From Vulcanococcus sp. (GTDB taxonomy: Bacteria > Cyanobacteriota > Cyanobacteriia > PCC-6307 > Cyanobiaceae): a stretch of 64,000 bases of DNA. The translations under genes and the position numbers were made by a program. The notes beneath the pieces were generated by a model. It had not been told where the DNA came from. It made no database searches and worked only from the letters and a program-made list of their open reading frames with translations. Shown one piece after another: positions 23,503-43,069 of the stretch (positions within the stretch are counted from its first letter, which is position 1; each line of letters begins with the position of its first letter). The stretch lies in assembly GCF_049418265.1 (NCBI RefSeq), contig NZ_JBMSIW010000001.1. The stretch is one strand, 5' to 3'.

Positions 23503-24426
23503 ATGGCCGCCTGGCTGTCGCGACTCCAGCTGAATCGAGACTCAGCTTTTGGTGGGCCGAGGATCCGCGATGTGCAGGTCGAAACCTATCGGGGTTCACA
23601 GCTCACCGTCCTCAAGATGTCGGCGGCTGGGATCTCTGATCTGCGCTTTCGTCATCATCCCGCCATGGTGAGCGTCGTGATCCCAACCCGGGGCCGCTTT
23701 CAGGGCGTGGCAGCCGGACGTTCTTTCACGGCGGTGCTCAATCAAGTGGGCTGTGTGCTGCTCCCGGACGATCCGCTCGCGTTGACTGCGGGATCCGATG
23801 TGCTGTCGGCTCTGGTGATGCAGCTGCCGCTGCAGGGCCTTCTGGATCTCTGCCGACGCCAGGGTGTCGCCCAGCCCAATCTGCACCTGTTGCTGGATGC
23901 CCTGGCGGGACAGGAAAGGTTGTTACTGGCTTGCTGCGAGCGGTTGCTGCAGTTGGCACTCCGGCCCGAGGGTGAAGCGCGCTCCACATTGGCGTTGCCA
24001 CTTGAAGCCTCCGTGCTTGCGGTGATGGCAAGCGGGCTGGTGGGGCGTGATCAGTTGCCGCACGGTTCTGTGCAGGATGCCCATGCTCTGCATGTGGAGC
24101 GTGCCATGGCTTACATGGAAAGCCACATGTCCGAGGTGATCGCTCTGCAGGATCTGTGTCAGTCCTGCTACATCTCTGCGCGCACACTTCAGGTGTCGTT
24201 TCAAAAGGTGCGTGGCTGCACGCCTCTGCAGGCCCTTCAGGAGATCCGTCTGGCCAGTCTGCGGAAGCATCTTTTGAAGCGCCTTGATTTAAGAGAAGCC
24301 TGCGCGTTGGTGGGTTTGCCTCCCACAGGACGGATGGCTGCCAATTACAAACGACTGTTCGGTGAACTGCCGAGTCGGACCCGCCAGCGCGCAGGCCGGG
24401 TGATTAGTCGGGTAGACGGTTTGTGA
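23503..24426 (+). CDS. AraC-family transcriptional regulator (start uncertain; frame open from 23302)
   Basis: C-terminal double HTH: IALQDLC..ISARTLQVSF..GCTPLQAL..YKRLFGELPS. Confidence 0.85.
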   Translation: MAAWLSRLQLNRDSAFGGPRIRDVQVETYRGSQLTVLKMSAAGISDLRFRHHPAMVSVVIPTRGRFQGVAAGRSFTAVLNQVGCVLLPDDPLALTAGSDVLSALVMQLPLQGLLDLCRRQGVAQPNLHLLLDALAGQERLLLACCERLLQLALRPEGEARSTLALPLEASVLAVMASGLVGRDQLPHGSVQDAHALHVERAMAYMESHMSEVIALQDLCQSCYISARTLQVSFQKVRGCTPLQALQEIRLASLRKHLLKRLDLREACALVGLPPTGRMAANYKRLFGELPSRTRQRAGRVISRVDGL

Positions 24427-24631
24427 GCTCCTGCAGCAGGGTTCGATGGGCGATGCTCAGATAATCAACATCGCGCCGAAGCCTGGTGATCTGTGTTTCA
24501 CAGTCGTAGGCAGCTTTGACCAGTTTCTGGGCTTCATCGCTGAGATCTGCAATCGGATAGCTCCGATCACCGATGGTGAGTGTCGCGGCTGGGGTGCCGT
24601 TCTCTGTACGGGTGATGGTGGGTTGTTCCAT
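24404..24631 (-). CDS. small DUF6447-like coiled-coil protein, last gene of the T1SS operon
   Basis: TLTIGDRSYPIADLSDEAQKL followed by a coiled coil; family recalled, not searched. Confidence 0.65.
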   Translation of the reverse strand: MEQPTITRTENGTPAATLTIGDRSYPIADLSDEAQKLVKAAYDCETQITRLRRDVDYLSIAHRTLLQELTNRLPD

Positions 24632-24717
24632 AACTTGGGAATGAAGGTAGGAATGTCCGATGTCGCTGTGCCTGATGAGCCGGTTCACCATTCAGGGCGA
24701 GCGTGATCGTGTACACA

Positions 24718-25836
24718 TCAGTGTCGCTCTGCCATCGGTTTGAAGATGTCCTCAAGAAAATCAAAAACAACAGCAATCACTGGTTTTTCATGCAGCACAA
24801 CCCGGGCGGTGATGCCCATTCCAGATCGCAGAGATTCCGCCGGGTAATGCTCTGGAATACCGCTTTTGTTAATACGAATTCGGGCGATGTAGGCCTGTGC
24901 CTGCCCCTTGCCGTCCAACGCAGATGTGGTGGGAGACAATGATTCAATAACACCTCGAAGTGTGCCGTGTTCATTGGCTGGAAAGGCATCCACGGTGATC
25001 TCTGCCCGTTTACCCCGTTGGATGGGTGCTGCCAATTTGGATGACACTTGCACCGAGGCAATCAGGCCATCACTGGGCACCACTTTCGCGAGAACTTCAC
25101 CTTGGTCCACCCGTTGACCAGTCACCTGAACGGCCAGTTGCTGCAGCGATCCACCAATGGGCGAAACCACATCGAATTGTGCTGAGCGGTCGCGCAACTC
25201 CCGTAGTTGCATGCTCAGGTCATTGATCTCGATCCTGCGCTGTAGATCCAACTTGGCTTTCTCTTCCAGCAGGGCCTGGTGCTCGGCTTTGCTTTGAAAG
25301 AGCTCGTTTTCCTTGTCGAGCAACTGCACCTCCTGCGCGGAACCCTGCTGCACCAGATTTCGCAGCCTGGCCACCAGGCCGGTGTTCAATTGGATACGTG
25401 CCTTGGCTTGACTGAGGCGGATGGCAAAGGCGAGGTCATCACGTTGTCCCTTTTGCTTGAGGAGTTCAAGCTTGAGGGGAATACTCTCCAGTCTTGGCTG
25501 TAAATCACCACGGCTTAGGGTGAATAAGACTTGCCCTTGTTGCACCATTTGGTGTTGCACGGCATTCACCCGTTCCACCACGGCTGAATCGGGACTTTTG
25601 ATGCTGGCCTCCGCGCGTATCGTCTCCAGCTGTCCAGGCAGATTGCTGGTTTCTTCAATGCGGCTGAGGCATGACCAGCTCAGCAAGGCTAGAGAACCCA
25701 GCCCCAGCGACCAGATCAGGGCGCGGCTCCAGCGCGGGGGAGGCGTGAGCAGCATCTGGTGACTGGCTGTCGCGTCATTAGCTTGTTGCAGCTTGAGTTT
25801 GGTTAGTTGTCTTAGGTCGGTTAATAGTGATTTCAT
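24718..25836 (-). CDS. HlyD-family secretion membrane fusion protein
   Basis: N-terminal TM, coiled coil, VVSPIGG, VDAFP, LRSGMG. Confidence 0.9.
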   Translation of the reverse strand: MKSLLTDLRQLTKLKLQQANDATASHQMLLTPPPRWSRALIWSLGLGSLALLSWSCLSRIEETSNLPGQLETIRAEASIKSPDSAVVERVNAVQHQMVQQGQVLFTLSRGDLQPRLESIPLKLELLKQKGQRDDLAFAIRLSQAKARIQLNTGLVARLRNLVQQGSAQEVQLLDKENELFQSKAEHQALLEEKAKLDLQRRIEINDLSMQLRELRDRSAQFDVVSPIGGSLQQLAVQVTGQRVDQGEVLAKVVPSDGLIASVQVSSKLAAPIQRGKRAEITVDAFPANEHGTLRGVIESLSPTTSALDGKGQAQAYIARIRINKSGIPEHYPAESLRSGMGITARVVLHEKPVIAVVFDFLEDIFKPMAERH

Positions 25837-28749
25837 TTAGCCTCCAAACTGTTGTTGATAAAGGGCGTAGTAGCGACCTGATTGGGCCATTAATTCTTCA
25901 TGAGTGCCTACGGAGTCGATGCGGCTGTTGTGCATCAGGACAATTTGATCGGCATGAATCAGTGTGGAGAGTCGGTGGGTGATCATCAGTAGGGTGCGGC
26001 CTTTGGCGTGGCTTCGAAGATTCCTCACAACCTGCTGTTCTGTATCCACATCGAGGGCACTTGTGGCCTCATCCAAAATCATCAAACTGGGGTTTTGCAG
26101 CAGCATTCGCGCCAGGGCAATCCGTTGCCGTTGTCCACCAGATAGACCTCCTCCCTTTTCTCCAACCGGAGTGCTGTAGCCATAGGGAAGTCCCATGATG
26201 AAGTCGTGGGCACAGGCAAGGCGTGCCGCTTCTACCACCTGATCCGTTGCGGCTTCCGGATCGGCTACGGCGATGTTGGAGTAGATCGAACCTTCGAATA
26301 GCAGGCAGTCCTGTGGAATAAATCCCAGCTGCCTGCGTAGGGAGTAGAGCTCAACCTTGCTGACATCCAGGCCGTCAATGAGTACTTTTCCTCGGCTTGG
26401 TTCATAGAGCCTGGGAATCAACTTGAGCAGGGTGCTCTTGCCGCAGCCGCTTTGCCCTACCAGACCCGTAAAGCTTCCCTTGGGGATCGTCAAGCTCACC
26501 CCGGACAGCTGTCCGCCACTGGTGGCTCCGTAACTAAAGCTCACCTGATCGAAGCGAATCGTCCCTTCGATTGGGGGCATGCTGATGTTCGCGTCTTCGA
26601 TGTCCTCGGTTTCTAGGGGTTGGTTCACCAGATCCCCCAGCCGTTCCACGGCTAGAGAGACCTCCTGGAAGTTCTGCCAGGTGCCAGCTAGACGCAGGAT
26701 CGGTTGGGTCACATAGCCGCTGATGATCCGAAACGCGATCAGACCGCCCAGTGTCAGCTGGTTCTGCAGAACCAGCCATGCCCCCACGGTGATCACCAGA
26801 ATGTTGCTGCTTTTATTGATCAACTGCAGGGCGTTGGAGCTGGCCGTGTTGGCTAGAACCGAGCGAAATCCCTTGTTGATGCCATCGAGGTGCCGGTCTT
26901 CCCAGTTCCGCCTTGTCGTCAACTCACTGTTTTGCACCTTCACGGTCTGGATGCCATTTAGCACTTCCACCATGTAGGACTGGGTTCTTGAGTACGCCTC
27001 AGCGCGCTGCCGGATCAGGCGCTGGGTAATCGGTGTCAGGCCAAGAATGACTAGCAGTAGTAGTGGAATACTTCCGAGGATGATGCCGGCAAGAATCGGC
27101 GAGTAGAAAAACATCACCCCGAAGTAGAGCATCGCAAACAGTGCATCGAGGACCACCGTGAGTGCAGTGCCAGTAAGGAAGCTGCGGATCTTGTCGAGTT
27201 CATTGAGGCGGCTGGCCAGCTCGCCTACGGGATGCTTTTCGAAATAGCGAATATTGAGTCTCAGCAGGCGGGAAATAATTGCCGAGCCCAGGCTGATATC
27301 AACCCTGTTGGAGATCTCCATGAACTGGAAGGTGCGCAGATTACTGAAGATCAGTTCCAGAACCATTAGCAGCACCATCACCACCGCAAAGCCGCCGAGC
27401 GCATTCACCGAACCCTGGCCAATGACCCGGTCGATGATCTGTTGAAAGAGCAGTGGTGTCGCCAGGGCAAAGAGTTGCGCCAGAAAGCTCGAGATGAAGA
27501 CCTCCACAAGTCCAACCTTGTAGCGGCTCAGGAAGGGCAGGACCCAGCTCAGGCCAAAGCGCTGCTGTGGTGTATGCCGGCCCGCGCTGATGGTCACAGC
27601 CTTTAGATCCGAACCGAACCGCTCGCTCAGGACCTCACCATTGAGTCGCTCAGCCTTTGTGTTGGGGTTGAGAATTAAGAGGCCGGATCCATTGGCTTCA
27701 ATAATGAGGCTCGGATTTTGCTGGGGATCCAGAATCACGGCAGGCGTGGGCAGACGGCTGGCATCGGCAGCCCGAAACGTCACGATTCGCCCGGCCAGCC
27801 CGAACTGATCCGCCACGCTCACCAGCTTTTCCAGGCTGAGGTTCTGTTCGCTGGCGGCGAGAAAATGTCCTGCTTTGCGCAGGTTGTCTCGCCGCATGGG
27901 TAGCCCGTAGAACTGGGCCAGCATCGTGAGCACAGCGGTATGGCACTCCGCCGCCGTACCGCCACCCACGGGGCGAAACCCGAGTTGTCGGATCTGCTGA
28001 GCAAGGCTTGGTTGCTGTTGCTCCAGTGCTGTGGTCTGGCTGTCGGGCGCTGCGTTGGTCGGGGCGTCCCCACGGTCAATCGGTCGTAGCCCGGCGGGGC
28101 GTCTGGAGTGCTCTTCCTTGGGATGTTCAGCGTCGCTCCAGATCAGAACGCGCGGCTTCTCCTCACCCAGGAAGCAGCGAATCGCCTCCGATGTGACCAG
28201 CTGTCCGTAATGAAACCCTTTTGTGGAGCGATCGGCATAAATTAGTGGTCCTTTTGGTTCGCTTTTTGGTGGTGGATCTCCTGTGGGCAATATCTGCCAG
28301 CGCCGCAGGTAGATCTCCGGAGTCTGCTGGTCCTCTGGCACATTGATCCCATAGCCCTGGATGTATTTCTGGATCAGAGGCAGTTCACTGGGGGAGAGGC
28401 CGCTGCGTAAATGATCCAGAACTGCTTCCTCCAGTTTTGGATGCAAGGGAAGTGTCCCAAGCACGATGGCTTCGCAGTCTGTGGAGGCCATCAGCTCTTC
28501 GCCCAAGTCGGTGTTCAGCAGGCTCAGTGCACCGCAGAGATAGGGGCTTTCCGGTCGCAGCACGGTGTGGCTGCCAAAGAGACGATCAGGATCTAGAAGC
28601 CTGCAATGGCCTTGTACCACCAGCAGCACTTCCGGGCTTGAGCCACTGGTCTGTAGGACCGATCCTGCGGGAAATCGGCGATGGTCACAATCCAGTTGTT
28701 GTGCCAGAGAGCGCAAGGCATCTGCATTCGCCGTTGTGAGTTGCATCAC
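25837..28749 (-). CDS. HlyB-type type I secretion ABC transporter (cNMP-like, C39-like, TM and ATPase domains)
   Basis: Walker A GQSGCGKST, LSGGQRQRIALAR, ILDEATSALD, ITHRL; PLLFQQIID TM domain. Confidence 0.93.
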   Translation of the reverse strand: MMQLTTANADALRSLAQQLDCDHRRFPAGSVLQTSGSSPEVLLVVQGHCRLLDPDRLFGSHTVLRPESPYLCGALSLLNTDLGEELMASTDCEAIVLGTLPLHPKLEEAVLDHLRSGLSPSELPLIQKYIQGYGINVPEDQQTPEIYLRRWQILPTGDPPPKSEPKGPLIYADRSTKGFHYGQLVTSEAIRCFLGEEKPRVLIWSDAEHPKEEHSRRPAGLRPIDRGDAPTNAAPDSQTTALEQQQPSLAQQIRQLGFRPVGGGTAAECHTAVLTMLAQFYGLPMRRDNLRKAGHFLAASEQNLSLEKLVSVADQFGLAGRIVTFRAADASRLPTPAVILDPQQNPSLIIEANGSGLLILNPNTKAERLNGEVLSERFGSDLKAVTISAGRHTPQQRFGLSWVLPFLSRYKVGLVEVFISSFLAQLFALATPLLFQQIIDRVIGQGSVNALGGFAVVMVLLMVLELIFSNLRTFQFMEISNRVDISLGSAIISRLLRLNIRYFEKHPVGELASRLNELDKIRSFLTGTALTVVLDALFAMLYFGVMFFYSPILAGIILGSIPLLLLVILGLTPITQRLIRQRAEAYSRTQSYMVEVLNGIQTVKVQNSELTTRRNWEDRHLDGINKGFRSVLANTASSNALQLINKSSNILVITVGAWLVLQNQLTLGGLIAFRIISGYVTQPILRLAGTWQNFQEVSLAVERLGDLVNQPLETEDIEDANISMPPIEGTIRFDQVSFSYGATSGGQLSGVSLTIPKGSFTGLVGQSGCGKSTLLKLIPRLYEPSRGKVLIDGLDVSKVELYSLRRQLGFIPQDCLLFEGSIYSNIAVADPEAATDQVVEAARLACAHDFIMGLPYGYSTPVGEKGGGLSGGQRQRIALARMLLQNPSLMILDEATSALDVDTEQQVVRNLRSHAKGRTLLMITHRLSTLIHADQIVLMHNSRIDSVGTHEELMAQSGRYYALYQQQFGG

Positions 28750-29551
28750 TGAATTGACCCTGCAGCCAGCTCGAGAGTTGTTGCAGTTCGGTCTTGAGAT
28801 CGCCGCAGATCCTCGACTTGAAATTCATTTCCTCGAGGAAGTTTTGCGTATGTGCGTCGTATTCGCTGTCGAACCGGTACTCCAGGCGCAGCAGAGTGTG
28901 CCATTCAGCTGCTTCAAAAGGGCCGATCAACTGGCCGGCCTGAGCCGTGCGCAACCGACCGGCGATCTCCGGATGGGGGGTGGTCAAGTCAACAGGGCCG
29001 ACAATGCCCTGCGTTTTTGCCTCCGGACCCCGTGAATGGAGACGTGCCGCCTCACCGAAGCTGATCTCGCCAGCTTCGATGGCATAGAACAGTTCGCGGC
29101 AGAGGCCCGCATCATCTACGCGAATCAGGCTATACAGCACTCTGTCTAGATTGTCCTTGTAGCGCAGATAGAGTGATTCGACGTTGCCACAGAATTGCTC
29201 GCGGAGTTCTGTGCGGCGCCAGTCATGAATGGCCTCGGAGATGAGATCAGCCCTGCTCATGCCGCGTTGAAGGCACCATTGTTGCTGCTCCTCCTGGTTT
29301 TTGAGACCGTGTTTGCTGCAGTATGTCTTCGTGGCATCTTCGGCAACCTTATTGGGGTCTGACAGGTTGTTGTGTTCAAAGACCACGGCTCTTTCTTTGA
29401 GTTGTCTCAGGAAGGGTTCTGCCAACTCGAAGCGAAATAGCAGTGAAATTAGCTCCACACTGCTGGCATCCTTCAGCGCTGTAAGAAGCGACTCGGCCGT
29501 CAATGTCGAAGGCTCTGCTGTATTCATGATTGGCGAGTTGTTGATTGCCAT
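28685..29551 (-). CDS. PpiC/parvulin-type peptidyl-prolyl isomerase associated with the T1SS (start uncertain: 29608, 29551 or 29527)
   Basis: DRVLYSLIRV..ELFYAIEAGEISFGEAARLHSRGPEAKTQGIVGP, typical of cyanobacterial T1SS-linked PPIases. Confidence 0.85.
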   Translation of the reverse strand: MAINNSPIMNTAEPSTLTAESLLTALKDASSVELISLLFRFELAEPFLRQLKERAVVFEHNNLSDPNKVAEDATKTYCSKHGLKNQEEQQQWCLQRGMSRADLISEAIHDWRRTELREQFCGNVESLYLRYKDNLDRVLYSLIRVDDAGLCRELFYAIEAGEISFGEAARLHSRGPEAKTQGIVGPVDLTTPHPEIAGRLRTAQAGQLIGPFEAAEWHTLLRLEYRFDSEYDAHTQNFLEEMNFKSRICGDLKTELQQLSSWLQGQFSDATHNGECRCLALSGTTTGL

Positions 29552-29561
29552 GTTCGTGATC

Positions 29562-29597
29562 GCAGTCGGTCTGGCAGTCGGTCTGGCAGTAGGTCTG
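29562..29597. repeat. 12-bp tandem repeat x3
   Basis: gcagtcggtctg gcagtcggtctg gcagtaggtctg. Confidence 0.85.
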
Positions 29598-29637
29598 GGA
29601 GTGGTCACGGCGATACTGTTGGTTGTGTTTGATGTGT

Positions 29638-32600
29638 TCAGCCCTTCTGAGGCATCAGTCCCAGCTGCACCTGGCAGTTGAGGAGTTCACTGACCATCAG
29701 GGCATCAGCCATGGCCTGATCAATGTCTTGCGCCAGCAGTAGCGATTGCTTCAACTGCTGCAGTTGGATTCGCTTGTGAGGGTTGGCTGGCGGATCGCGC
29801 TGCCATGCCAGGTGATCCAGCCAGCTGCCCCAATTCAGGTCCTCCTCCTGGTGGTCCAGGACGCGTTCGAGCATGCGGCTCACATCAGCCAGTAGTGCGC
29901 CTGGATGGCTACTGCTGCAGATCAACTGCCACAGAGAGGCCTGCTGATCCAGCTCACGGGTGACCAATAAGGTGTTCGGCGCATGGATCTGATTGGCCTG
30001 CAGGCTGATGCGGCCGTGCTCGATCAACAGCTGAAGTGGCATCGGAGTACCTCTAACGGGGTAAAGCCGCAGATGCCATGCAGCTTTCAGCTCGGGATTA
30101 CGCCGCTGCAGCTGAATCGCTCGGCCGAGCTTCGATTTGAGCAGCAGGGAGCGAAGACCACGCTCACCACCGGCGGGCATCGTCATCATCGTGATCACGA
30201 GGCCCGCCAGGCTCGCTGGATGCTGAAAAAACTCGAGCAGATTCCGTAGCAGGCTGCGGAAGTCATCGGGCTGCTGAGTTTCCATTCGCCGCCTCTGCTG
30301 CCAGGTGTCCATGGCTTCGCGTCCCTGCTCGTCAGGCTCCTTGCCTTGCTGCAGGCGTCCGCGCTTCAGCGCTGACTCGCTCAGAGGAACTTCGGTTTCA
30401 TCCGTCGGTGCTGCCGGGTGCCCTGCCGCTGTCACGGTTAGAAGCAGTGGTTGGTCGTTGCCCCGAAGGTCAGCACCCACTCTTCCGACGTCCAGGGTCG
30501 GAACTTGTGCTGTGCGTGTCTCTGGCCCAGACGGTCCTGATGGATCGAGCTGCAGAGCACTGGCTGATTCGCCGCGCAGCGATGGGCTCTGCGATGGGCT
30601 CGTCTCGACGCCGATGCGAATGCCGACACCGCGGACCCTGTTGGCTTTCTCCTGTCCCTCGCGAATCAATCGATCAATCAGTGTCTGAGCGCTGAGCGAC
30701 TTGATTTCCAGTTGCCGTGCTGCATCGCTGCCATCGGCCATGGCGAGTCCCAGTCCACCCGCTGACTCCTCATTGAGCATCAGATCCAGGCGGATCGGAG
30801 CCGATGGATCCGTGAGCTCAAAATCAAGGACAAGAAACGTCTCGGCTGGCTGGTCACCAAGCGCCTCACCCAGGCCGAGTTCCGGCAGGCTGGCAGCGCT
30901 GAAGCGCAGGCGGTTCTCGTTAAGACGGCTTGGATCGACCTGCCGAAACAGAGGGAAGACCGCAGTGATCGATTCGTCGAGGGGGCGATCGGCTGGCTGT
31001 CTCAGCTGCAGACCTGTCCAGTGCAGATCCAGATCAAGCCCGATCACCCCTGGGTTGAGGCTGCTCTGCCGCTGATCAGTCAGTTCCACACGCATGGACA
31101 GCTGAGTACCAGCGGGCAGGGTCCCAAGTTGCTCCGTCCTGATCCGCTCGCCGCTCCCTGAGAGATAGAGGCGGGGTTCAATGCTGAGCAGGTTGTCCTC
31201 ACCGCGGCTCTGCTTCGTGCCACCCTTCTGGTCAGCTGTGATGACATCGAGGTTGAGTTGATAAAGGCTGATCGCACCACTGCGATCCGTTGCAGTCAGG
31301 GTCAGTCGGTGTAAGCCTTGGTCGCGTTCTCCTGGTGAAAATCTCAGTTCGCCGGTGTCAGGATCAAAAACTAGGTTGCTCTCGCGGTTTTTCTGCAGGC
31401 CGAAACTGAGTTTGTCGCTATGAATCTGATCGAGATCTCCAAATAGATCCCTGGCCTGCAGCCATACATCGCTGTTGATGAGGATGCGGCGCTCATCAAA
31501 CGCCCCATCCAGGTAGAAGGGGGCTTGGTTGCTGTTCTCAACCTGCAGCAAGAAACGCTTCTCTGCTAGGGCTCCAGCTTGATCAATCGCCTGCAGTCGG
31601 ATGCGATGCTCGCCCACTGAATCGTTATCTGTGCTACCGCTAAGTCTGTTTCGCTGTGGATCAACTTCAAGCCAGTCTGGAGCCTCCACCTCAAACCGGA
31701 GCTGGTCGCCAATCAAGATGTCGTCGTCCTGAAAAAGCACCCCAAAATCCAACTGGAATCTATCCCCTTCCTGCAGGATGATCTGCTCCAGCTCTGGACC
31801 AATCCGATATGGACTGCGGTTGAAATCCCTATCTACTACTTTGAGTCGCAATGGCACAGCTGCTGACTCACCGGCAAGATCGGTAGCGACCAGTTTGATG
31901 TTGAGCAGTTGTGTTTCGCCTGCTGGAATCAGGCCGCTAATCGTCCCGCTCTCTGCATCGATTGTCAGCAGCGAAGCAAGCTGCTCAGCATTCTGCAGAT
32001 CCAAGCTGTAGCTCAGCTGATCTCCGGCATCCACATCGCTGATGCTTTGCTCCGGCAGCCTGATTTCGAATGGACGGTCCTGCCGGACCCAGATCTCTGG
32101 GAGAGGTTTCCCATTCCAGAGCGGCGCATCGTTGGTGTTGATCACCACCAGCTTCACGGTCTGCTGTGTGGTCGCTCCACTCTGATCCTGTGCTTCCACG
32201 CCGATCTGCCAGTGGCCCACCTCGCTATTGCTTGCCTGCCCACTGAGCAAGCCGCTTCGTTCATCCAGCACCATCCATTCCGGTGCTCCTCTGCTCAGCT
32301 GATAAGTCAGGCTGTCGCCGACGCTGACATCGTCATCCTGGAAGGCATCGGCCAGATTGATCGTGAATGCTTCGTCTTCCAGGATCTCGATCGGGTCGAT
32401 TGCAATGGCCTTGGGGGAGTCATTGACATTGAGAACGTTGAGAAGCAGCGTCTGCTCCCACGCCCGACCTGAGTTGTCGATGGCTTGCAGCAGCAGTCTG
32501 TGCTCTCCCACCTGTGCTTGCTGGGCAAGGCCGAACAGCACGGGAATGGGTCGGCTCTGGCTGTCGACGACCACCACCTGCTCGGCAGAGAGGGTGGCGT

Positions 32601-33471
32601 TGCCGCGTGCGGGATAGTTGCGGGGAATGATCGTGAGATCGGGCCCTTCTTCCCCATTCGTGAGCAGTCGATAGTTGAGCTGAGCAAAGCTTTCTCGCCA
32701 GCTGTCGCCCAGAATTTCACCGTTACCACTGCTGGGCAGGCTTGCGGCCACCAGACCACTGAGGCTTCCTGCTGCTGCATCGAGGTTGCCCGTATCACGG
32801 AACAGCGGCAGTGATGGTGTGAGGTTGATCTGCTCCAGCTCCATGGCATCGGACTTCCAGAGCAGATCCAGCTCCAGGCCGATCAGTCCCAGGCCGTCAT
32901 GGCGCGTGTCAGTGACCAGCACATCCAGCTGCACGCCATCGCCTGAGGGATCTTGGAACCGGCCTTCAATCACCACCTTCTCCGCCAAGGTGGCGTCGGG
33001 TAATCGCCACTCGTAACTCAGCCAGTCGACGGGCTGACCGTCCTCCTGATTCAGGATCTGGATCTGCTTCAGGTTCTGCGCTTCTGGCACCAGGCTCTGA
33101 AGCTCAAGGCTGAAGGGGCGATCTTCAAGCACCACTCGCTGTTGCAGAGCTAGCGGCTGATGGGTCAGAAACGCGTCCTGGCCAATGGCTGACTGCAGAA
33201 GGGGTGGGTTGCTGACCTCCGTGGGACCTGTCAGTTGATCCGGGACGGTTGTTGTTGTGATCTCTCCTCCAAGGGCCGCGATCGCTGTATCCAGCTGATC
33301 GAACCGCTCTGGTGATGGGATCGGAGGTGTGCTGTCTAGAACTCCCAGCGTGTTCATCACATCGCTGGCTGTCTCAATGGGCTCGCTCAGAGGTGATGTC
33401 AATGGCTCCTGCAGGTCGACAGAGGCGCTGAAGTTGCCGTCGGTCTGCAGAGGATCGCCTGTGATTGCCAT
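29638..33471 (-). CDS. 1277-aa surface/scaffold protein: five cadherin-like (CADG/He_PIG) repeats, two cohesin-like domains, hydrophobic segment and C-terminal domain
   Basis: Repeat ends NVNDSP, NTNDAP, FNRSP, NSNQAP; DxDxGDxL and A.D..GA motifs; duplicated IGL(E/D)LDL.W..PLFR..AASLP..G.GE.LG module. Confidence 0.8.
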   Translation of the reverse strand: MAITGDPLQTDGNFSASVDLQEPLTSPLSEPIETASDVMNTLGVLDSTPPIPSPERFDQLDTAIAALGGEITTTTVPDQLTGPTEVSNPPLLQSAIGQDAFLTHQPLALQQRVVLEDRPFSLELQSLVPEAQNLKQIQILNQEDGQPVDWLSYEWRLPDATLAEKVVIEGRFQDPSGDGVQLDVLVTDTRHDGLGLIGLELDLLWKSDAMELEQINLTPSLPLFRDTGNLDAAAGSLSGLVAASLPSSGNGEILGDSWRESFAQLNYRLLTNGEEGPDLTIIPRNYPARGNATLSAEQVVVVDSQSRPIPVLFGLAQQAQVGEHRLLLQAIDNSGRAWEQTLLLNVLNVNDSPKAIAIDPIEILEDEAFTINLADAFQDDDVSVGDSLTYQLSRGAPEWMVLDERSGLLSGQASNSEVGHWQIGVEAQDQSGATTQQTVKLVVINTNDAPLWNGKPLPEIWVRQDRPFEIRLPEQSISDVDAGDQLSYSLDLQNAEQLASLLTIDAESGTISGLIPAGETQLLNIKLVATDLAGESAAVPLRLKVVDRDFNRSPYRIGPELEQIILQEGDRFQLDFGVLFQDDDILIGDQLRFEVEAPDWLEVDPQRNRLSGSTDNDSVGEHRIRLQAIDQAGALAEKRFLLQVENSNQAPFYLDGAFDERRILINSDVWLQARDLFGDLDQIHSDKLSFGLQKNRESNLVFDPDTGELRFSPGERDQGLHRLTLTATDRSGAISLYQLNLDVITADQKGGTKQSRGEDNLLSIEPRLYLSGSGERIRTEQLGTLPAGTQLSMRVELTDQRQSSLNPGVIGLDLDLHWTGLQLRQPADRPLDESITAVFPLFRQVDPSRLNENRLRFSAASLPELGLGEALGDQPAETFLVLDFELTDPSAPIRLDLMLNEESAGGLGLAMADGSDAARQLEIKSLSAQTLIDRLIREGQEKANRVRGVGIRIGVETSPSQSPSLRGESASALQLDPSGPSGPETRTAQVPTLDVGRVGADLRGNDQPLLLTVTAAGHPAAPTDETEVPLSESALKRGRLQQGKEPDEQGREAMDTWQQRRRMETQQPDDFRSLLRNLLEFFQHPASLAGLVITMMTMPAGGERGLRSLLLKSKLGRAIQLQRRNPELKAAWHLRLYPVRGTPMPLQLLIEHGRISLQANQIHAPNTLLVTRELDQQASLWQLICSSSHPGALLADVSRMLERVLDHQEEDLNWGSWLDHLAWQRDPPANPHKRIQLQQLKQSLLLAQDIDQAMADALMVSELLNCQVQLGLMPQKG

Positions 33472-36700: not shown

Positions 36701-39700
36701 CTTCACCGGCGGTGAACATGTTGTTCTGGGCGGAACAGAGGGGAATGATGCCATCTATGGCGACAAGGGCATCGATACGCTATGGGGCGATGGCGGTGAT
36801 GACTATCTCAATGCCGGCATGGAGTCTGATCAGGTCTTTGGTGGCGACGGCGATGACATTATTATTGATCCCTTCGGTGATGATTTTCTCCGTGGTGAAA
36901 ATGGAGATGACGTAATCGTCAATGGTGCTGGCCTTGACGTTGATTTTGGCGGTGCGGGTCAAGACGCGATGTTTGCCGTCGTTGATAGCACTGAAATGTT
37001 TGCCGGTGAGGATAACGACTTTATGCGTGGCGGCTCAGCTCCTGATCTCATGATGGGAGGTGAGGGCGACGACTGGATGGAGGGTGGCGAAGGCTTTGAT
37101 TACATGGCCGGCGAAAATTCGGAGCTGTTCTTTGACAGCCCAATTGTCGGTCATGACATTATGAATGGCCAGGGAAACGATACTGATTACGACGGTGAAA
37201 ATGGAGATGACATTATGGTTCAGGGCGTGGGCATTCAGCGAAATAATGGCATGAATGGCTTTGACTGGGCTATTCATAAGGGCGACCCTGTTGCGGCTGA
37301 TACGGACCTCACGCCGCAGATCCCCGGTCTGGTTGAAATCCCAGATGCTGCCTTGGCGGTGATACTGCGCGATCGTTTTGATTCCGTTGAAGGCTTATCG
37401 GGCTGGAAGTATGACGATCATTTGAGGGGATCTGTTCGTTCCATTGGCCAGAATCCTTGGTTCCAGAACCAGCTCACACAGGCTGGTGTTGACAGGATTC
37501 GTGGCCTGCGTGCTGTGCTTGGCGGTGAAGACCTCGTGGATCCGGATGCGGTTGCCTTCGGTGACCTCAACATCGACGGAAATTCAGACAGTCAGATCTT
37601 CCTCGGCGGAGACGGCAGTGACACCATCATGGGTGGAGTTGGCGATGATCTCATCGATGGCGATGCCTGGCTGAATGTTCGCATCGAAGGGACTCGTAAA
37701 GACGGTTCTTATTTTACGGTCGACAGCCTTAGTGATTTGTTTGTTGATCTCGTTTCGGGGGCCATTGATCCGGGGGAGATGCATGCTGTGCGTGAGATTC
37801 TGTATGACGATCGTGCTGATGGCTCTAACCCCGATGATGTCAATCTCGATGTTGCTGTCTTCCAGGACCTGAGGGAGAACTACGACATTACTTTCGAAGT
37901 CGACGGTTCTGTCACTGTGTCGCATCTGATCGTTTCAGACGGCCTGCAGAGTGACGGGATGGATCGGCTTCGCAATATTGAGGTTGCACGTTTCGCCGAC
38001 CAAGATCTACGGCTGGTTAATGATCCGCCAGTCTCTTCGGATCTGCTGGCAACCACGGAGCTCTCAACAACGGGCCTTTTTGGTTTCTTCGGTGCCGCCA
38101 ATCGCGTTGGCCTTGGCGCTCCTGCCCTCTTTGACGCGAATAACGTCACACCTGATAATCCGCGAGGGCTTGTTGATCCAAGCTCGGTTTCTGTTTCCTT
38201 CTTTGATGCCGCTGATTCTGCCACTGCGCTACCGCTCTCGGCGGCTGGTGAGCTGGTGTTGGCCGCCACGCCCGGTCGGCAGCTGTCGATGACAGCCAGC
38301 TACCTCGATGCCGCTGGTTTTGCGAACACCTTTCAAACTCCCGTCTTTAATGCGATTGTCGGTACAGCTTCCGCCAATACGCTGACGGGTACGGCTGGTC
38401 AGGATTACATCTTTGGTGGTGCCGGAGCTGACGTTCTGCTCGGCAATGGAGGTGATGACTATCTCTCTGGTGGCGTGGGCTCTGACCTTCTCAATGGTGG
38501 TGATGGTGTTGACGTTGCCAACTTTGCCGGGGTGGCCACCAGTCTGGGGAATGCATCCAACCCTCCAGCGCAGACGGTCGTGGATGCCCGGTTTGGACTG
38601 AATGGTGTCAACCTCACGGTCTCAACTCTGACCGGCGGTCTTGACACCCTCGTGTCGATTGAACGCCTGCGCTTCAGCGATGGCATCTTTGATCTTGTCG
38701 CTGGTGCCACCAGCTCTGCTGATGCACTCATTTACAGCGGTGATCAGCGCGCGTTGCTGTTTGGTGGTGGTGGCGATGACAACCTGCGCGGCGGCGTTGA
38801 TGACGACGTCTTCACCTACACCGCAGCCGGCTCGACCCTTCAGAACGCCATTAGCGGTGGCGGCCGTGATTTTGTTCATGGTGGTGCCAACCGTGAGCTT
38901 GGTGATCGCCTGGTGATTCATGGCGATAACACCACTGAGTCGTTCCGCGTGATTGCCGTGGCAGGGGATGCCAATGTCTCACGTCGCACTGAGCTTTCGG
39001 CTGCAGGCTTTGCTGCCATCGCTGAAACGACCGAGATCGTGATTCTCAGGGGTACCGGTGCTCTCGCTGCGGATGCACCACTGACGACCGGCAACTTTGC
39101 AATCATCGCCGAAGTGGCAGCGATTGAAGAACTCACAATCAATGTGAGTGGCGCTGGTGGAACCGGTACACAACGTGTCCAGGTTATTGGTGATTTTAAT
39201 CCCACCAGCCTTCGTACCAACACCATCACCGTCAGCAGTGATGGCGCTGGTGTTGATGTTGATGTGACCAGTCTTGAATCCGATCACCGTGTTGTGCTTG
39301 ATGCCGGCACGATCCTCGGTCAGCGCCCTCAGGACCTTGTTCAGGCCATTGCAGATGAATCCATGACAGCTAATTCGATGACTTCCGATCCCATGAATCC
39401 TGCAGAGGCCAATGACAACGCAGGTGGCAATGTGTTGGCGCCCCTGACTTTGAGAGACGCCCAGGATCTTCTTGACCTGGTGCGTGGGATTGCACCAAAT
39501 CGCCTCGATCCAGAGAATGCCGATGCGGTTGGTGTTCGTGACCTGGCTGGCGCTGAGAACAATCGCGCCAATGCCACTTTTGGCGCAGCAAACGAACCGT
39601 TCATCCGTCTCACCGAAGCGCGATTCGGCGCTGTTGACCCCGACTCTGGCACCGCTGAGATCAACCCGATCTTCGCTGGGCTCGACCCCCGCCAGATTTC

Positions 39701-42700
39701 CAACAGTGTGGCTGCCCAGCAGCCGCAGACTTCTCCCAGTCGTCAGGCCAACCTGTTCTGGATGGCCTTCGCCCAGTATTTCGACCATGGCCTCGACTTC
39801 GTTGTGAAGGGCGGCAATGGGACCATTCCCATCGGCGGGTTCGGTTCCGGTGGCGCTGATAACCCTGCAGATCTCACTCGGGCAACGATCACCGGTTGGG
39901 ACGCTGATGGCCCGCAGCACCTCAACCAGACGTCCCCCTTCGTTGATCAAAACCAGGCTTATGGCTCCACTGCCCTGGTTGGTCAGTTCCTGCGTGAATC
40001 AGACGGGGCGCGTGGCTTGGGATCTCATTTGCTCTCAGGTGGCGATGATCCTTCTGCTCCCGGATTCCAGTTGCTGCCGACACTGCGCACACTGTTGGAT
40101 CACCACATCGCTGCCAAGACTATTTTCACTGGCACTGACCGTGGTGACTTGACCCTGACGGAGTACTACCCCGCTCTGATCAGCGCTGACACCTTTGACT
40201 ATGACCCGTCTGTCATTGCTGAGCTGAACCGCGACTTTCTTGGATCGGGTTACTCCCTGCTCGTTGATCTCAACCCATTTGTCTCTCCTCTAGAGCACGT
40301 TGTCGCGGGTGACGGCCGGCCGAACGAGAATGTCGCCCTCTCTTCCATTCACTCGATCTGGGCCCGTAATCACAACTATCATGTTGATCAGTTAACGGAG
40401 CTCTATTCAGCTGCTGGTTTAGCTGCCACGCCGGAGGAGATCTTCCAGGCCGCAAAAATTATCAACGAGACGGAATACCAGCGCATCATCTTCACGGAAT
40501 TTGCTGAGATTCTGTTGGGGAGTGCCGGCATTCGTGGTTCTGGCGAGCACGGCTTTGATGATTATCAGCCGGCGACGGATGCCCGCATTAGCCATGAGTT
40601 TGCGGCAATGGCCTATCGCGTGGGCCACACCATGATTGCTGACGACTTCACGATCCTTGATGCTGATGGGCAGCCAATGCGCGTGCCCTTGGTGGATCTT
40701 TTCCTTAATCCCACCAATGAGGCGGGGGCCTTTGCCTTTGATCCTGACGGTCCGGGGCCTGCAGCGCCACAGACCGGCGAGGCCGCGCTGAGCTCTTTGG
40801 CCTCCAGGGGTTACACCCCCGTGCCTGGCTATGAGCAGCTCGGCGTAGCCCGCATCTTGGGTGGCATGGTGCTGCAGCCTGCTGAGGAGGTTGATCCTCA
40901 GGTGGTCGATGCCGTTCGCAACGATTTGGTGCGGGTGCGTGCTGATCTGGCTGCCTTCAATATCGCCAGGGGCTGGGATCTGGGCCTCGGCACGCTCAAC
41001 CAGGTCAAGGCCGGCCTGCTGGCTTCCACCAACCCTTATGTCCAGGAAGCCCTCAGCTATGTGGGCCTCGAGAACATGACCCCCTATGCCAGCTGGGAGG
41101 ACTTCCAGCTGCGTAATGGTCTTGCCGATGCGGAGCTGGAGCGGCTTCGTGCCGCCTATCCCGATCTTCACCTCGAGTCCACCGCTGTGGAGGCGTTCCG
41201 TCAGTTCAATCCTGATGTGCAGCTATCGGTCCAGGGCGATGGCAGCGCCGTGGTTTCGGGCATCGATCGCGTTGATGCCTGGGTGGGTGGTTTGGCTGAG
41301 CAGAAATTCGAGGATTCACTGCTGGGCACCACCTTCTGGACGATCATCCATGAACAGCTGGATCGCCTGCAGGAGGGTGACCGCTTCTACTACCTCTCCA
41401 GGGTCGATGACCTGGACTTCTATGAGGCCTGGGCCAAGGAGCAGAGTTTTGCTGACATTGTCGAGCGCAATACCGGCCTCACAGGGCTACCCAAAGACAT
41501 CTTCGAAGTCTCTGATTCCGAAGTGTTGATTGGATTGCCGGCTGTGGCTCCTGCAGATGCTGGTGCCACCACGCCTGTCGATCCTGATCCCGCTGATGGG
41601 CTTGCGACCGACGCTGCGACCGACGTTGCATCCGACGTTGCATCCGACGTTGTGACTAAGGCATTGCACCTGGGCCTGAGTCTGCACAAGCTTCCGGATT
41701 TCACCGGTGATGAACCGAATGAGCTCGTGCTGCGCCCCTTCGGTTCACCGGCAGAGCGATCTGCTCAGTTCTACCTGATGCTCACGGCAGAGTCGCTGCG
41801 CGATGCCAGCATCGACACCCTGGATGTCACCTTCGATCTTGGAGAGGACTTCGTCAATGTTTTTGAGCTGAGCGGGGAGCAGATCTTCTTCTCCGATGAC
41901 CTTGCTCTCCAGCGTCGCGTACAGATTGATGGCAGTAAGCTTCGTTTTGAAGGTGCCGGGCTGGGTGCACTTGGCGCTGGCCAGGGTGTTTCAGAAAAGG
42001 CCCCCATTGCGGTGATTGCTCTCACCCCGCGAGAAGACATTGATGAGCAGATTCTTGCGGCGCGCCTGGCCGATCGCTATGGCTTCACCAATTCTGAATC
42101 CTGGCAGCAATCGCTCCAGTTCAGTGTTGATGCCAATGTCCATGAGATCATGTTCTCTGATCTCATGTCGCTCGGTGATCTCGGCGGCGAGGCGGCATTA
42201 CTCACCGACGAGCTTCAGGTGCTTGCCCGTGCTGCTCAGGTGGATCTGCTGACGGACGACGTCTTTGCCTTGGGCACAGAACGCCAGGTGCTCAAACCGG
42301 GTGAAGGAGGATTCACCAACCTGATCCGCTCAGGAGACACCCTGGAGCGCACCACCCAGTGGCAAAACGGCGGTGAATTCACCCTGCAGGACCTGTCGAT
42401 CACCGACCTCAATCAGGCGGGTGTTGCCACCTCCAAGAGCTGGATTGCAGGTGGTTCGGATGCCTTGGCTGTTGGTGCGACAGCCGACATCACCACAGAG
42501 ATCAGTGTGTACGGTCCAGCTGGTTCGGTTCTGGACAGCGCAGCCCTCGGCTTCCAAATTGATGCCCTCGGTGGCTATCACTGGGATACGGCTGCCATGC
42601 CTACGTTCCAGCAGAAAAATCTGGTCACCTACCAGGCCGACCTCAACTATGACGGTCGTGTCAGCATGAAGGACTTGGCCTTCCTGAATGCCGGTGTGAG

Positions 42701-43031
42701 CCGTGGTTACAGCCGTGATGTTGATGCTAACTATGATGGGACCCTCGATATCAATGACCTCGCGGTGATTGATGCCGAATGGGGGCAAAGTCTCCATCAG
42801 GGTGAAGGTCAGTTCCTGGGTTCTGATTTCATGTCTATGGCGGATCTGTCTCAGCAGGGCCTGCAGCAGTGGGACAGCTCCGCCTTCATCGCTCAGAATG
42901 CAATCGAAGCGGAGCAGCAGGTTTCGAATCCTGTTGCTGAATCCGGTGGCACATTCGTCACGGTGCAGGGCTTTGAGGCGCTTCTTGCTCAGCTCGAGCA
43001 GCAGCAAACCCAGCAGTACGACCTGACCTAA
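33738..43031 (+). CDS. 3097-aa double animal-type heme peroxidase (MopA/PepA-like peroxicin) with RTX repeats, cohesin-like domain and C-terminal dockerin
   Basis: Two sets of Q(F/Y)FDHGLD, GDGRxNE and YR(F/V)GH; GGxGxD nonapeptides; two DxNYDGxxxxxD loops near the C-terminus. Confidence 0.9.
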   Translation: MASSFHVNYADLQRILENIKIAERESAGENLLDIITEVATGSPAITGTTFVNAANLPLGLRHVDGSYNQLIAGSPDGVLTGAADQSFARLVDPSYISGTGSPSLDLNPDPASLLEVKNTSYDPGTPNPQNDLGIHPNSVVDASVRTISNLIVDQTISNPAAIASALRLAGHEDPDRQALILHEQARLLLDPLAAEEDQADARTAFMNALAESGVTITSDGSIVVEHRSADIGLSPGNSSWMTIFGQFFDHGLDLLAKGGQGTVYIPLQPDDPLYVEGSSSNFMALTRAAGNPGTNLITPWIDQNQTYTSHPSHQVFLREYQRIDRDTGALLDPGSDEWQKGLTVATGRLLNGAQGGVATWADVKAQALTYLGIALDDRDVLKIPQVLTDPYGRFIAGQNGYAQLLAVDPQGQPITVEGTAEGVIPSELNVSRIAQAFLDDINRAAVPVIVDGQLLQDADMAVGLSDAVPDGRGGFTTYDNELLDAHYVTGDGRGNENIALTAIHSVFHGEHNRVLEANKLTILRSGDLEGINEWLRRPLADDVALPSSQASDADLTAFAAGLQWDGERLFQAAKFSTEMQYQHIVFEEFARRIQPNIAPFVFTNSADLDARIVAEFAHAVYRFGHSQLGDGVARLEADLASRDLGLIQSFLNPLEFANSGLDAEAATGAIARGITRVVDQEIDEFIVEALRNNLLGAPLDLASLNLARGRELGIPSLNQTRAQLYAMTGAVQLKPYTGWTVDPNQADSHGFFQHLKNPMSVVNLIAAYGTHHTITEATSVEAKRRAAMLIVFNTPFDGQEPPADSLDFLRGTGAYADQETGINDVDLWIGGLAEQVNEFGGQLGETFNAVFQYQMEQLQNGDRFYYLSRTQGMNLLTQLEATTFSDLVMRNSDLGDPHATHLSAHIMGVPDLILELDLNTAQANYSGDQELDALVGSENTAEQRGSLDPTASTLFDFLLGGAATSKVIRQYGSLDLDGNGFVDGNVLRFTGGEHVVLGGTEGNDAIYGDKGIDTLWGDGGDDYLNAGMESDQVFGGDGDDIIIDPFGDDFLRGENGDDVIVNGAGLDVDFGGAGQDAMFAVVDSTEMFAGEDNDFMRGGSAPDLMMGGEGDDWMEGGEGFDYMAGENSELFFDSPIVGHDIMNGQGNDTDYDGENGDDIMVQGVGIQRNNGMNGFDWAIHKGDPVAADTDLTPQIPGLVEIPDAALAVILRDRFDSVEGLSGWKYDDHLRGSVRSIGQNPWFQNQLTQAGVDRIRGLRAVLGGEDLVDPDAVAFGDLNIDGNSDSQIFLGGDGSDTIMGGVGDDLIDGDAWLNVRIEGTRKDGSYFTVDSLSDLFVDLVSGAIDPGEMHAVREILYDDRADGSNPDDVNLDVAVFQDLRENYDITFEVDGSVTVSHLIVSDGLQSDGMDRLRNIEVARFADQDLRLVNDPPVSSDLLATTELSTTGLFGFFGAANRVGLGAPALFDANNVTPDNPRGLVDPSSVSVSFFDAADSATALPLSAAGELVLAATPGRQLSMTASYLDAAGFANTFQTPVFNAIVGTASANTLTGTAGQDYIFGGAGADVLLGNGGDDYLSGGVGSDLLNGGDGVDVANFAGVATSLGNASNPPAQTVVDARFGLNGVNLTVSTLTGGLDTLVSIERLRFSDGIFDLVAGATSSADALIYSGDQRALLFGGGGDDNLRGGVDDDVFTYTAAGSTLQNAISGGGRDFVHGGANRELGDRLVIHGDNTTESFRVIAVAGDANVSRRTELSAAGFAAIAETTEIVILRGTGALAADAPLTTGNFAIIAEVAAIEELTINVSGAGGTGTQRVQVIGDFNPTSLRTNTITVSSDGAGVDVDVTSLESDHRVVLDAGTILGQRPQDLVQAIADESMTANSMTSDPMNPAEANDNAGGNVLAPLTLRDAQDLLDLVRGIAPNRLDPENADAVGVRDLAGAENNRANATFGAANEPFIRLTEARFGAVDPDSGTAEINPIFAGLDPRQISNSVAAQQPQTSPSRQANLFWMAFAQYFDHGLDFVVKGGNGTIPIGGFGSGGADNPADLTRATITGWDADGPQHLNQTSPFVDQNQAYGSTALVGQFLRESDGARGLGSHLLSGGDDPSAPGFQLLPTLRTLLDHHIAAKTIFTGTDRGDLTLTEYYPALISADTFDYDPSVIAELNRDFLGSGYSLLVDLNPFVSPLEHVVAGDGRPNENVALSSIHSIWARNHNYHVDQLTELYSAAGLAATPEEIFQAAKIINETEYQRIIFTEFAEILLGSAGIRGSGEHGFDDYQPATDARISHEFAAMAYRVGHTMIADDFTILDADGQPMRVPLVDLFLNPTNEAGAFAFDPDGPGPAAPQTGEAALSSLASRGYTPVPGYEQLGVARILGGMVLQPAEEVDPQVVDAVRNDLVRVRADLAAFNIARGWDLGLGTLNQVKAGLLASTNPYVQEALSYVGLENMTPYASWEDFQLRNGLADAELERLRAAYPDLHLESTAVEAFRQFNPDVQLSVQGDGSAVVSGIDRVDAWVGGLAEQKFEDSLLGTTFWTIIHEQLDRLQEGDRFYYLSRVDDLDFYEAWAKEQSFADIVERNTGLTGLPKDIFEVSDSEVLIGLPAVAPADAGATTPVDPDPADGLATDAATDVASDVASDVVTKALHLGLSLHKLPDFTGDEPNELVLRPFGSPAERSAQFYLMLTAESLRDASIDTLDVTFDLGEDFVNVFELSGEQIFFSDDLALQRRVQIDGSKLRFEGAGLGALGAGQGVSEKAPIAVIALTPREDIDEQILAARLADRYGFTNSESWQQSLQFSVDANVHEIMFSDLMSLGDLGGEAALLTDELQVLARAAQVDLLTDDVFALGTERQVLKPGEGGFTNLIRSGDTLERTTQWQNGGEFTLQDLSITDLNQAGVATSKSWIAGGSDALAVGATADITTEISVYGPAGSVLDSAALGFQIDALGGYHWDTAAMPTFQQKNLVTYQADLNYDGRVSMKDLAFLNAGVSRGYSRDVDANYDGTLDINDLAVIDAEWGQSLHQGEGQFLGSDFMSMADLSQQGLQQWDSSAFIAQNAIEAEQQVSNPVAESGGTFVTVQGFEALLAQLEQQQTQQYDLT
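41602..41652 (+). repeat. 12-bp tandem repeat x4 encoding an ATD/ASD linker
   Basis: ttgcgaccgacg ctgcgaccgacg ttgcatccgacg ttgcatccgacg. Confidence 0.85.
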
Positions 43032-43039
43032 CGGCAATT

Positions 43040-43069
43040 GCCCCTCAGCCTTTGGCTGAGGGGCTTCTT
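43040..43069 (+). terminator. Rho-independent terminator after the giant peroxidase
   Basis: gcccctcagcc-ttt-ggctgaggggc followed by ttctt. Confidence 0.75.

Follow-up and report, generated by a model that had tools for sequence, protein, structure and literature searches.

A putative type-I-secreted cohesin-dockerin display system with interchangeable cargo in picocyanobacteria

Gene content of the block

In the 64,000 nucleotides of Vulcanococcus sp. analysed here (assembly GCF_049418265.1, contig NZ_JBMSIW010000001.1; hereafter, the window), a ~20-kb low-GC block sits between cysS and polA. Pfam/NCBIfam scans of the open reading frames (ORFs) of the window assigned to this block genes for an AraC-family regulator, a DUF6447-like protein, HlyD, HlyB, PpiC, a protein of 1277 amino acids (aa; P0002) and a double heme peroxidase of 3097 aa (P0001). 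The block probably encodes a type-I-secreted, non-cellulolytic cohesin-dockerin display system, with the 1277-aa protein as the putative anchoring scaffoldin, a reading that we hold with moderate confidence. The same dockerin tail that ends the peroxidase is carried by many unrelated proteins in related genomes, pointing to what is likely a plug-in surface-display system.

23503..24426, plus strand: AraC-family regulator (HTH_18, E 5.5e-14)
24404..24691, minus strand: DUF6447-like small protein (24.4 bits, below the cut-off of 27)
24718..25836, minus strand: HlyD-type periplasmic adaptor of type I secretion (HlyD_3, E 4.4e-17; best NCBIfam match TIGR01843)
25837..28749, minus strand: HlyB-type ABC exporter with a C39-like domain (Peptidase_C39, ABC_membrane, ABC_tran)
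28685..29608, minus strand: PpiC-type peptidyl-prolyl isomerase (Rotamase, 26.1 bits, above the cut-off)
29638..33471, minus strand: scaffold-like protein, 1277 aa (P0002), divergent from the peroxidase gene
33738..43031, plus strand: cargo, a double animal-type heme peroxidase of 3097 aa (P0001) with RTX repeats and a C-terminal cohesin-like/Ig/dockerin tail
43040..43069, plus strand: terminator-like hairpin 3' of the peroxidase gene (11-pair stem and T-run)

The scans recovered the arrangement described in the original prediction, namely the divergent pair of large genes, the PpiC/HlyB/HlyD operon and the AraC gene, and the DUF6447-like gene was likewise present but did not reach the family cut-off. 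The linked type I secretion module was also recovered, with both an HlyB-type exporter and an HlyD adaptor identified in the block; HlyB matched TIGR01846 with E 1.2e-198 and 661.7 bits, below the cut-off of 725.6. For the TolC-type channel, three OEP genes were found on other contigs of the assembly and none in the block. Additional HlyB/HlyD pairs are encoded in the same assembly (G000, contigs C98, C150 and C113), the C98 HlyB being 40% identical to the block HlyB across its full length.

The peroxidase cargo and its three-part tail

The larger of the two divergent genes encodes the following parts.

34440..36419, plus strand: heme peroxidase domain 1, aa about 235-894 (An_peroxidase; motifs at aa 246, 490, 621 and 703)
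36723..38792, plus strand: RTX nonapeptide repeats, 9 motif matches (HemolysinCabind)
39528..41507, plus strand: heme peroxidase domain 2, aa about 1931-2590 (motifs at aa 2013, 2191, 2293 and 2406)
41706..42224, plus strand: the cargo's own cohesin-like module, aa 2657-2829 (beta-sandwich in the tail model)
42225..42629, plus strand: Ig-like (X-type) module 5' of the dockerin (DUF7507, E 2.2e-4; all-beta, pLDDT >90 over most of it)
42639..42785, plus strand: dockerin with two Ca-loop-helix repeats, aa 2968-3016 (Dockerin_1; two helices in the model)

All four heme/catalytic motifs, including the distal and proximal heme motifs, are intact in each An_peroxidase domain, where we take the roles of the motif residues to be those of myeloperoxidase. 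The best solved relatives of domain 1 are 8s6c and 6erc and, judging from MopA/PepA-type relatives, the enzyme may oxidise peroxide, halide or Mn(II). A signal peptide was not evident by eye in either P0001 or P0002.

That the double peroxidase ends in a dockerin was borne out by Dockerin_1 (PF00404), which scored 26.1 bits against a cut-off of 22.9 for the excised stretch, the family being absent from the listing when the full 3097-aa protein was scanned. No other tandem of Ca-loop motifs like the pair at aa 2968 and 2996 was found in the 1.97-Mb assembly. In 41 representative dockerins, positions 1, 5, 6 and 12 of repeat 1 and positions 1, 6 and 12 of repeat 2 are invariant. The model of the last 450 aa of P0001 (predicted local distance difference test, pLDDT, 81.6; predicted template-modelling score, pTM, 0.74) comprises two beta domains, two helices and a helical end, with the dockerin helices at model residues 329-341 and 357-365, so that the tail is predicted to fold as a cohesin-like, an Ig-like and a dockerin module. 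When the full tail was compared with solved structures by Foldseek, the clostridial entry 3kcp_A ranked third (template-modelling (TM) score 0.25/0.35, root-mean-square deviation (rmsd) 15) among many unspecific matches to Ig chains. The cohesin-like module of the cargo is homologous to the module of the scaffold-like protein (profile match, probability 95.7), and 7 of its 21 aligned homologues match Pfam Cohesin at E <=0.1 (best 7.6e-6).

The scaffold-like protein carries two remote cohesin homologues

The divergent gene encodes two cohesin-like modules separated by Ig-type repeats.

32533..33006, minus strand: cohesin-like module A, aa 156-313 (36% identity to module B)
31222..32529, minus strand: He_PIG/cadherin-like Ig repeats between modules A and B (He_PIG E 1.4e-27, Big_9, Cadherin_4)
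30685..31176, minus strand: cohesin-like module B, aa 766-929 (AlphaFold2 beta-sandwich)
29641..30306, minus strand: conserved C-terminal domain, aa 1056-1277 (from the alignment; opens with a moderately hydrophobic segment)

The matches to He_PIG, Big_9 and Cadherin_4 agree with the cadherin-like repeats predicted for this protein. Modules A and B (E 5e-12 over 117 aa) form two separate clades across all genomes (support 100/100). The C-terminal domain was present in 41 fetched proteins ranging from 1277 to 5263 aa in length, 40 of which contain exactly two full cohesin-like modules; in this they resemble the non-catalytic, multi-cohesin scaffoldin that is one mark of a cellulosome. The C-terminal domain may serve as an anchor or as an export signal. 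The idea of a degenerate PEP-CTERM anchor on the scaffold found no support, none of 13 C-terminal domains giving a match.

The proposal of two cohesin-like modules stood with regard to predicted fold and remote homology, but not with regard to the Pfam Cohesin cut-off. An AlphaFold2 model of module B, built on an alignment of 26 modules, showed a beta-sandwich with eight confident strands (pLDDT 78.5), its last 28 residues (139-166) being unreliable at pLDDT <50. Cohesins occupied ranks 1-12 in the Foldseek comparison and 32 of the 37 listed rows, with 5g5d_A as the best match (E 4.2e-4, TM about 0.42-0.49). The top row of a VIA comparison against 48,161 chains was the type II cohesin 3l8q (Z 8.6, rmsd 3.8, 135 aligned residues), although such Z values lie in the range that the tool rates as possibly just a common arrangement. 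A cohesin cluster at 0.90 in the ESM Atlas served as a lead only, and profiles of the scaffold modules, the cargo module and the C-terminal domain retrieved nothing useful from PDB sequences.

The module profile returned 229 matches among 1.84 billion proteins. Of the 150 listed, 70 distant ones were scanned and 4 of these exceeded the Pfam Cohesin cut-off. In P0111 (its record name being Cohesin domain protein of Rosistilla), P0116 and P0149 the best-matched stretch itself passes Pfam Cohesin (profile E 6e-25, 6e-23 and 1.5e-11, respectively). Since the profile matches land on stretches recognized as cohesins, the scaffold module is, by sequence comparison, a remote homologue of planctomycete-type cohesins, here called cohesin-like and not a member of PF00963. 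A cohesin fold is predicted for both modules A and B.

Distribution in the family and interchangeable cargo

To map the system, 300 genomes of the family were searched with single sequences and then with profiles built from the loci found. The single-sequence searches detected the module in 14 genomes and the tail in 14, with 13 common to both; the profiles detected the module in 13 (two matches each) and the dockerin in 13, with 12 in common. All 13 scaffold-bearing genomes carry the tail, in answer to the proposed check for co-occurrence of the gene pair; in the 13th (G209) the tailed gene is cut by the end of the contig. One genome with a weak module match (G079, E 4e-4), unconfirmed by the profile, was left out of the 13, and one complete genome (G268) has the tail and no scaffold. 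The co-occurrence of scaffold and tail (Fisher P-value 1e-20) is inflated by kinship and island linkage and is no proof of interaction. Wherever contigs reach, the order scaffold-ppiC-hlyB-hlyD recurs, with one or more tailed genes immediately upstream on either strand. Among 52 metagenome loci, most of the others being too short, the scaffold gene adjoins a tailed gene in 10 and weakly in one more.

Named records with tail or scaffold include Prochlorococcus MIT 0707, MIT 1303, MIT 1306, MIT 1313, MIT 1318 and single-cell genomes, as well as Synechococcus BA-120 BA3, UW140, NB0720_010, LA31 and CBW1107 and Cyanobium BA5m-21; because these may overlap the 300 genomes, the counts were kept separate. 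The scaffold itself is present in the records of NB0720_010, LA31 and CBW1107. Cultured strains hold near-identical scaffolds. At three loci (L054:1383-6398(-), L160 and L161) a tailed peroxidase and araC are retained with neither scaffold nor secretion genes, and the dockerin has drifted.

The tail is attached to a broad assortment of heads: peroxidases, a multicopper oxidase, FGE-sulfatase/beta-helix proteins, a BspA-type leucine-rich repeat (LRR) protein and RCC1 repeats, as well as C-type lectin, H-type lectin, pentapeptide, FG-GAP and beta-propeller proteins. The maximum per genome is 11 tailed genes, in G032, where a tandem row of 8 precedes the scaffold and the other 3 lie at different places. 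Most of the non-peroxidase cargos are devoid of RTX repeats. No glycoside hydrolase or CBM3 scored above cut-off in the cargos and scaffolds scanned, the only weak matches being to GH141-insertion and pectate-lyase-like beta-helix families. Broken or stand-alone remnant tails lie between intact tailed genes (L068:4736-5074, L118:7203-9006, L124:7415-9217, L145:2636-3004), suggesting turnover of cargo genes by recombination. In G047, a vanadium haloperoxidase-like gene (VCPO second domain; L031:4715-7132(-)) lies directly downstream of hlyD; in the same genome the tail ends two heme peroxidases and, at an unlinked position, a multicopper oxidase (L051:9679-14781).

The animal-type peroxidase is absent from 5 of the 13 scaffold-bearing genomes and, conversely, of the 47 relatives among the 300 that encode An_peroxidase, only 8 have the scaffold and 39 do not. 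Judged by this distribution, the peroxidase is the payload of this lineage and not the defining feature of the system. A peroxidase-specific complex was rejected as the general reading on account of the swappable cargo and this mismatch, and the oxidative peroxidase layer of the original prediction found no support as the defining function. The prediction had also missed the three-part tail of the peroxidase and the wider range of cargo, which is not specific to peroxidases. As far as the sequences tell, the system appears real and conserved, broader than a peroxidase complex, and centred on a putative binding step.

Cohesin-dockerin genes in other cyanobacterial families

Outside the family, the module profile matched 12 of 371 cyanobacterial genomes. 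At 6 of the 8 loci fetched, a cohesin...dockerin protein adjoins a separate protein with an N-terminal cohesin-like module and, at its other end, RTX-type, cadherin or PEP-CTERM parts; two of these partners exceed the TIGR02595 (PEP-CTERM) cut-off. Of the remaining two loci, one encodes a cohesin...dockerin protein alone and the other a four-module protein with no dockerin detected. No hlyB/hlyD cluster was present in the fetched stretches around these pairs.

Two of the partners are small cohesin-like and PEP-CTERM proteins of 202 and 206 aa (L112:10744-11349(-) and L116:8564-9181(+)), with signal peptide not evident, and each adjoins a beta-helix/cadherin protein that ends in cohesin...dockerin (another cyanobacterial family). 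At L104:8369-17404(-) and L105:2450-17440(-), four giant genes with cohesin-like modules stand in tandem; two of them end in a dockerin, and one of these combines an N-terminal cohesin with a C-terminal dockerin, like an adaptor scaffoldin. L113:8107-16431(-) encodes a 2775-aa cadherin/VWD protein with four consecutive cohesin-like modules and no dockerin detected nearby, adjoining two other giant cadherin proteins.

Proposed mechanism and alternatives

The favoured reading of a display system would work as follows. HlyB-HlyD, together with a TolC encoded elsewhere, would export both signal-peptide-less proteins, with PpiC helping them to fold, and extracellular calcium would fold the dockerin. 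The first helix of the dockerin would then dock, in one orientation and in a calcium-dependent manner, on module A and/or module B, while the C-terminal domain of the scaffold would hold the complex on the envelope and the Ig repeats would act as a spacer. At the surface, the displayed peroxidase might act on peroxide, halides or Mn(II), other strains displaying lectin, LRR, RCC1, beta-helix or oxidase cargo instead, and the most plausible role would be a variable surface coat facing grazers, phages or neighbours.

A docking face on the first repeat is consistent with conservation of the dockerin, which we examined in 136 tails parsed out of 163 and reduced to 41 by dereplication at 60% identity. 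Positions 10, 11, 17 and 18, presumably the recognition positions as in clostridial dockerins, have entropies of 1.2, 1.6, 0.3 and 0.7 bits in repeat 1 versus 2.1, 2.6, 1.3 and 2.4 bits in repeat 2, in a set that is biased toward conservation of repeat 1, having been partly collected with first-repeat patterns; packing of repeat 1 inside the tail could produce the same difference. Two further cases bear on the relation of tail and scaffold. The dockerin of G268 is the most drifted (42% identity versus 57-97%), its cargo cohesin is undetectable and hlyB/hlyD are lacking at the locus. P0091, a protein of 4477 aa in a cluster of three members of equal length, is a natural in-frame fusion of an X-dockerin tail with a complete scaffold.

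Several observations weigh against docking on an anchored scaffold. No scaffold module exceeds the Pfam Cohesin (PF00963) cut-off, only 1 of 26 members coming as close as E 0.06 and one further homologue reaching E 0.0025. In the VIA comparison an antigen I/II adhesin domain (Z 8.4) tied with the cohesin, so the fold alone is no proof of a docking role. Identity across the deepest split is 57-72% for the dockerin, similar to the HlyB core (66-69%), and only 23-34% for modules A and B. Genes of one island travel together with or without binding between their products, and related genomes do not count as independent cases. The dockerin could instead be satisfied by the cargo's own cohesin-like module, and two sites per scaffold are few for up to 11 cargos. 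As to anchoring, the C-terminal domain matches nothing in Pfam, NCBIfam, PDB sequences or the ESM Atlas; its hydrophobicity in the 1277-aa protein peaks at only 1.2; that protein has no RTX block; no known anchor (SLH, sortase motif or equivalent) was matched in the scaffold by Pfam/PEP-CTERM scans; and no exosortase (PF09721) was found in any of the five genomes searched.

An unlikely alternative is that the tail is a portable export or folding tag for the HlyB-HlyD of the island, the 1277-aa protein being a co-secreted, non-binding Ig-repeat adhesin or spacer. Type I secretion signals sit near the C-terminus, usually within the last ~70 aa, and in 63 of 64 tail homologues 61-97 aa separate the dockerin from the C-terminus; moreover, its conservation follows that of the HlyB core and not that of modules A and B, and most non-peroxidase cargos, having no RTX repeats, would need some signal. 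Because G268 has lost the scaffold and the secretion genes together, the drift of its dockerin is compatible with this alternative too. However, the last 70 aa show little conservation (24%, or no match detected, across the deep split), P0091 keeps its tail about 3,900 aa from the C-terminus, 40 of 41 scaffolds retain both modules despite their great range of lengths, and other families have cohesin-dockerin pairs too, around which the fetched stretches contain no hlyB/hlyD cluster.

That the cargos chain head to tail, the dockerin of one binding the cohesin-like module of the next while the scaffold nucleates and anchors filaments or a mesh, we regard as quite improbable as a replacement for docking on the scaffold, with which it is partly compatible. 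It would accommodate the presence of a cargo cohesin-like module in 64 of 64 tail homologues (the query profile included that module), the homology of this module to the scaffold module and its greater proximity to Pfam Cohesin, the excess of up to 11 cargos over two scaffold sites, and the four tandem genes of G645, which include an adaptor-like cohesin...dockerin protein. Yet conservation is lower in the cargo module than in the dockerin, pairwise searches do not detect the module across the deep split, and several Prochlorococcus cargos have a weak profile match for it or none. Very improbable is the notion that dockerin and cohesin-like modules are calcium-rigidified intramolecular units with no docking between molecules, which agrees with a tail model of pTM 0.74 over 449 aa and with the frequent combination of both modules in one chain in distant homologues, but leaves unexplained why 13 of the 14 relatives with the tail also encode a separate protein with two modules, and why stand-alone cohesin-PEP-CTERM genes adjoin dockerin genes.

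Returning to the favoured display system, its most extended form would be a picocyanobacterial type-I-secreted assembly, Prochlorococcus included, in which an anchoring scaffold nucleates head-to-tail chains of interchangeable cargos that each carry a cohesin and a dockerin. A strain would alter its surface chemistry, be it with oxidases, lectins or repeat proteins, by recombining heads onto one tail, and the related cohesin-RTX and cohesin-PEP-CTERM pairs would extend the system to a wider cyanobacterial class; taken as a whole, we consider this form rather unlikely.

Relation to known systems

Type II cohesin-dockerin pairs fasten complexes to the cell surface (PMC12484212). The best structural matches of module B are type II cohesins of Clostridium thermocellum and Acetivibrio cellulolyticus (5g5d, 5k39, 3l8q), and the order of the cargo tail is that of the clostridial cohesin-X-dockerin module (3kcp), the structural match to which is weak. 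Unlike clostridial cellulosomes, the system resides in a diderm phototroph, its annotated cargos include no cellulases or CBM3, no SLH or sortase anchor was matched, and the block encodes a type I secretion module beside large proteins in which no signal peptide is evident. With no plant-wall hydrolase or CBM3 above cut-off in the proteins scanned, the system, as read from sequence, does not qualify as a cellulosome; what it resembles is the type II pair that anchors one.

Further parallels are the planctosome of freshwater Planctomycetes (PMC6461901) and the cellulosome-like complex of Ca. Stygibacter (PMC8542988), both non-clostridial cohesin-dockerin assemblies of aquatic diderms that, like the present one, were modelled from genomes; the module profile indeed reaches planctomycete cohesin proteins (P0111). 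The proteins of those complexes carry signal peptides and are predicted to degrade polypeptides or polysaccharides (PMC6461901, PMC8542988), whereas the cargos here are oxidases, lectin-like and repeat proteins that share a 450-aa tail and adjoin a PpiC-HlyB-HlyD module.

The cargo itself resembles MopA of Erythrobacter SD-21 (PMC6247904) and PepA of Pseudomonas putida (PMC3396595) in combining An_peroxidase with RTX repeats and, like PepA, P0001 has two peroxidase domains. A homologue from Cyanobium PCC 7001 is tabulated in the PepA paper (PMC3396595), the main text of which does not contain the word dockerin. The PepA insertion motif was not found in P0001. SwmA and SwmB of marine Synechococcus are also large, strain-specific exported proteins, often encoded in islands and thought to shield cells, but they stand alone, and cohesin is not a term of the main text (PMC4949707). 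Neither "cyanobacteri" nor "Synechococcus" occurs in the main text of a survey of genomes for cellulosome displayers, and four cyanobacterial terms were absent from six supplements (PMC11557425).

No description of this cohesin-dockerin system in cyanobacteria was found in the literature searched, subscription papers being outside its scope. What would be new here is the cyanobacterial variant, cohesin-dockerin scaffolds as such being already known. A study of non-cellulosomal cohesins and dockerins by Peer et al. (2009) may list single cyanobacterial cohesin or dockerin proteins.

Composition and surroundings of the block

The block has a GC content of 0.54-0.60 compared with 0.64-0.70 in most of the flanking sequence, and a GC content at third codon positions (GC3) of 0.59-0.67 compared with 0.84-0.87, indicating that it was likely acquired. 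The same cysS-polA site is occupied by the block in two genomes of the same genus, and the block is absent there in six other relatives examined. The longest ORF of araC spans 23302-24426(+), the ATG at 23503 being the likelier start; araC adjoins the cluster in G009, G069, G237, G209, G241 and G047, and also the scaffold-less peroxidase of G268.

A second hairpin of 15 pairs (43091-43126) lies between the peroxidase gene and polA, the total number of hairpins in the scan being no higher than in shuffled sequence, and matches in a promoter scan of the block were at chance level. Outside the block, genes for tRNA-Asp (48624-48699) and tRNA-Trp (49136-49210) lie close to gltX on the minus strand. 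Contigs from two RNA libraries of one study covered 29 and 30 of 30 bins of the block versus 19 and 20 of 30 bins of the flank, but identity was lower in the flank and such contigs cannot show transcription, so they were not counted as evidence of expression.

Implications

Cohesin-dockerin assemblies are known from anaerobic polymer degraders and, by inference, from a few aquatic heterotrophs. If the display reading holds, the block, carried by about 4% of the sampled genomes (13/300), would represent an oxygenic picocyanobacterial version, with type I secretion and non-hydrolytic cargo. For surface display in cyanobacteria, a divergent cohesin-dockerin pair that brings its own exporter would also serve as a native tool. 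Such a system would give many unnamed giant island proteins a testable role and would provide a mechanism for strain-specific surface variation of the most abundant phototrophs.

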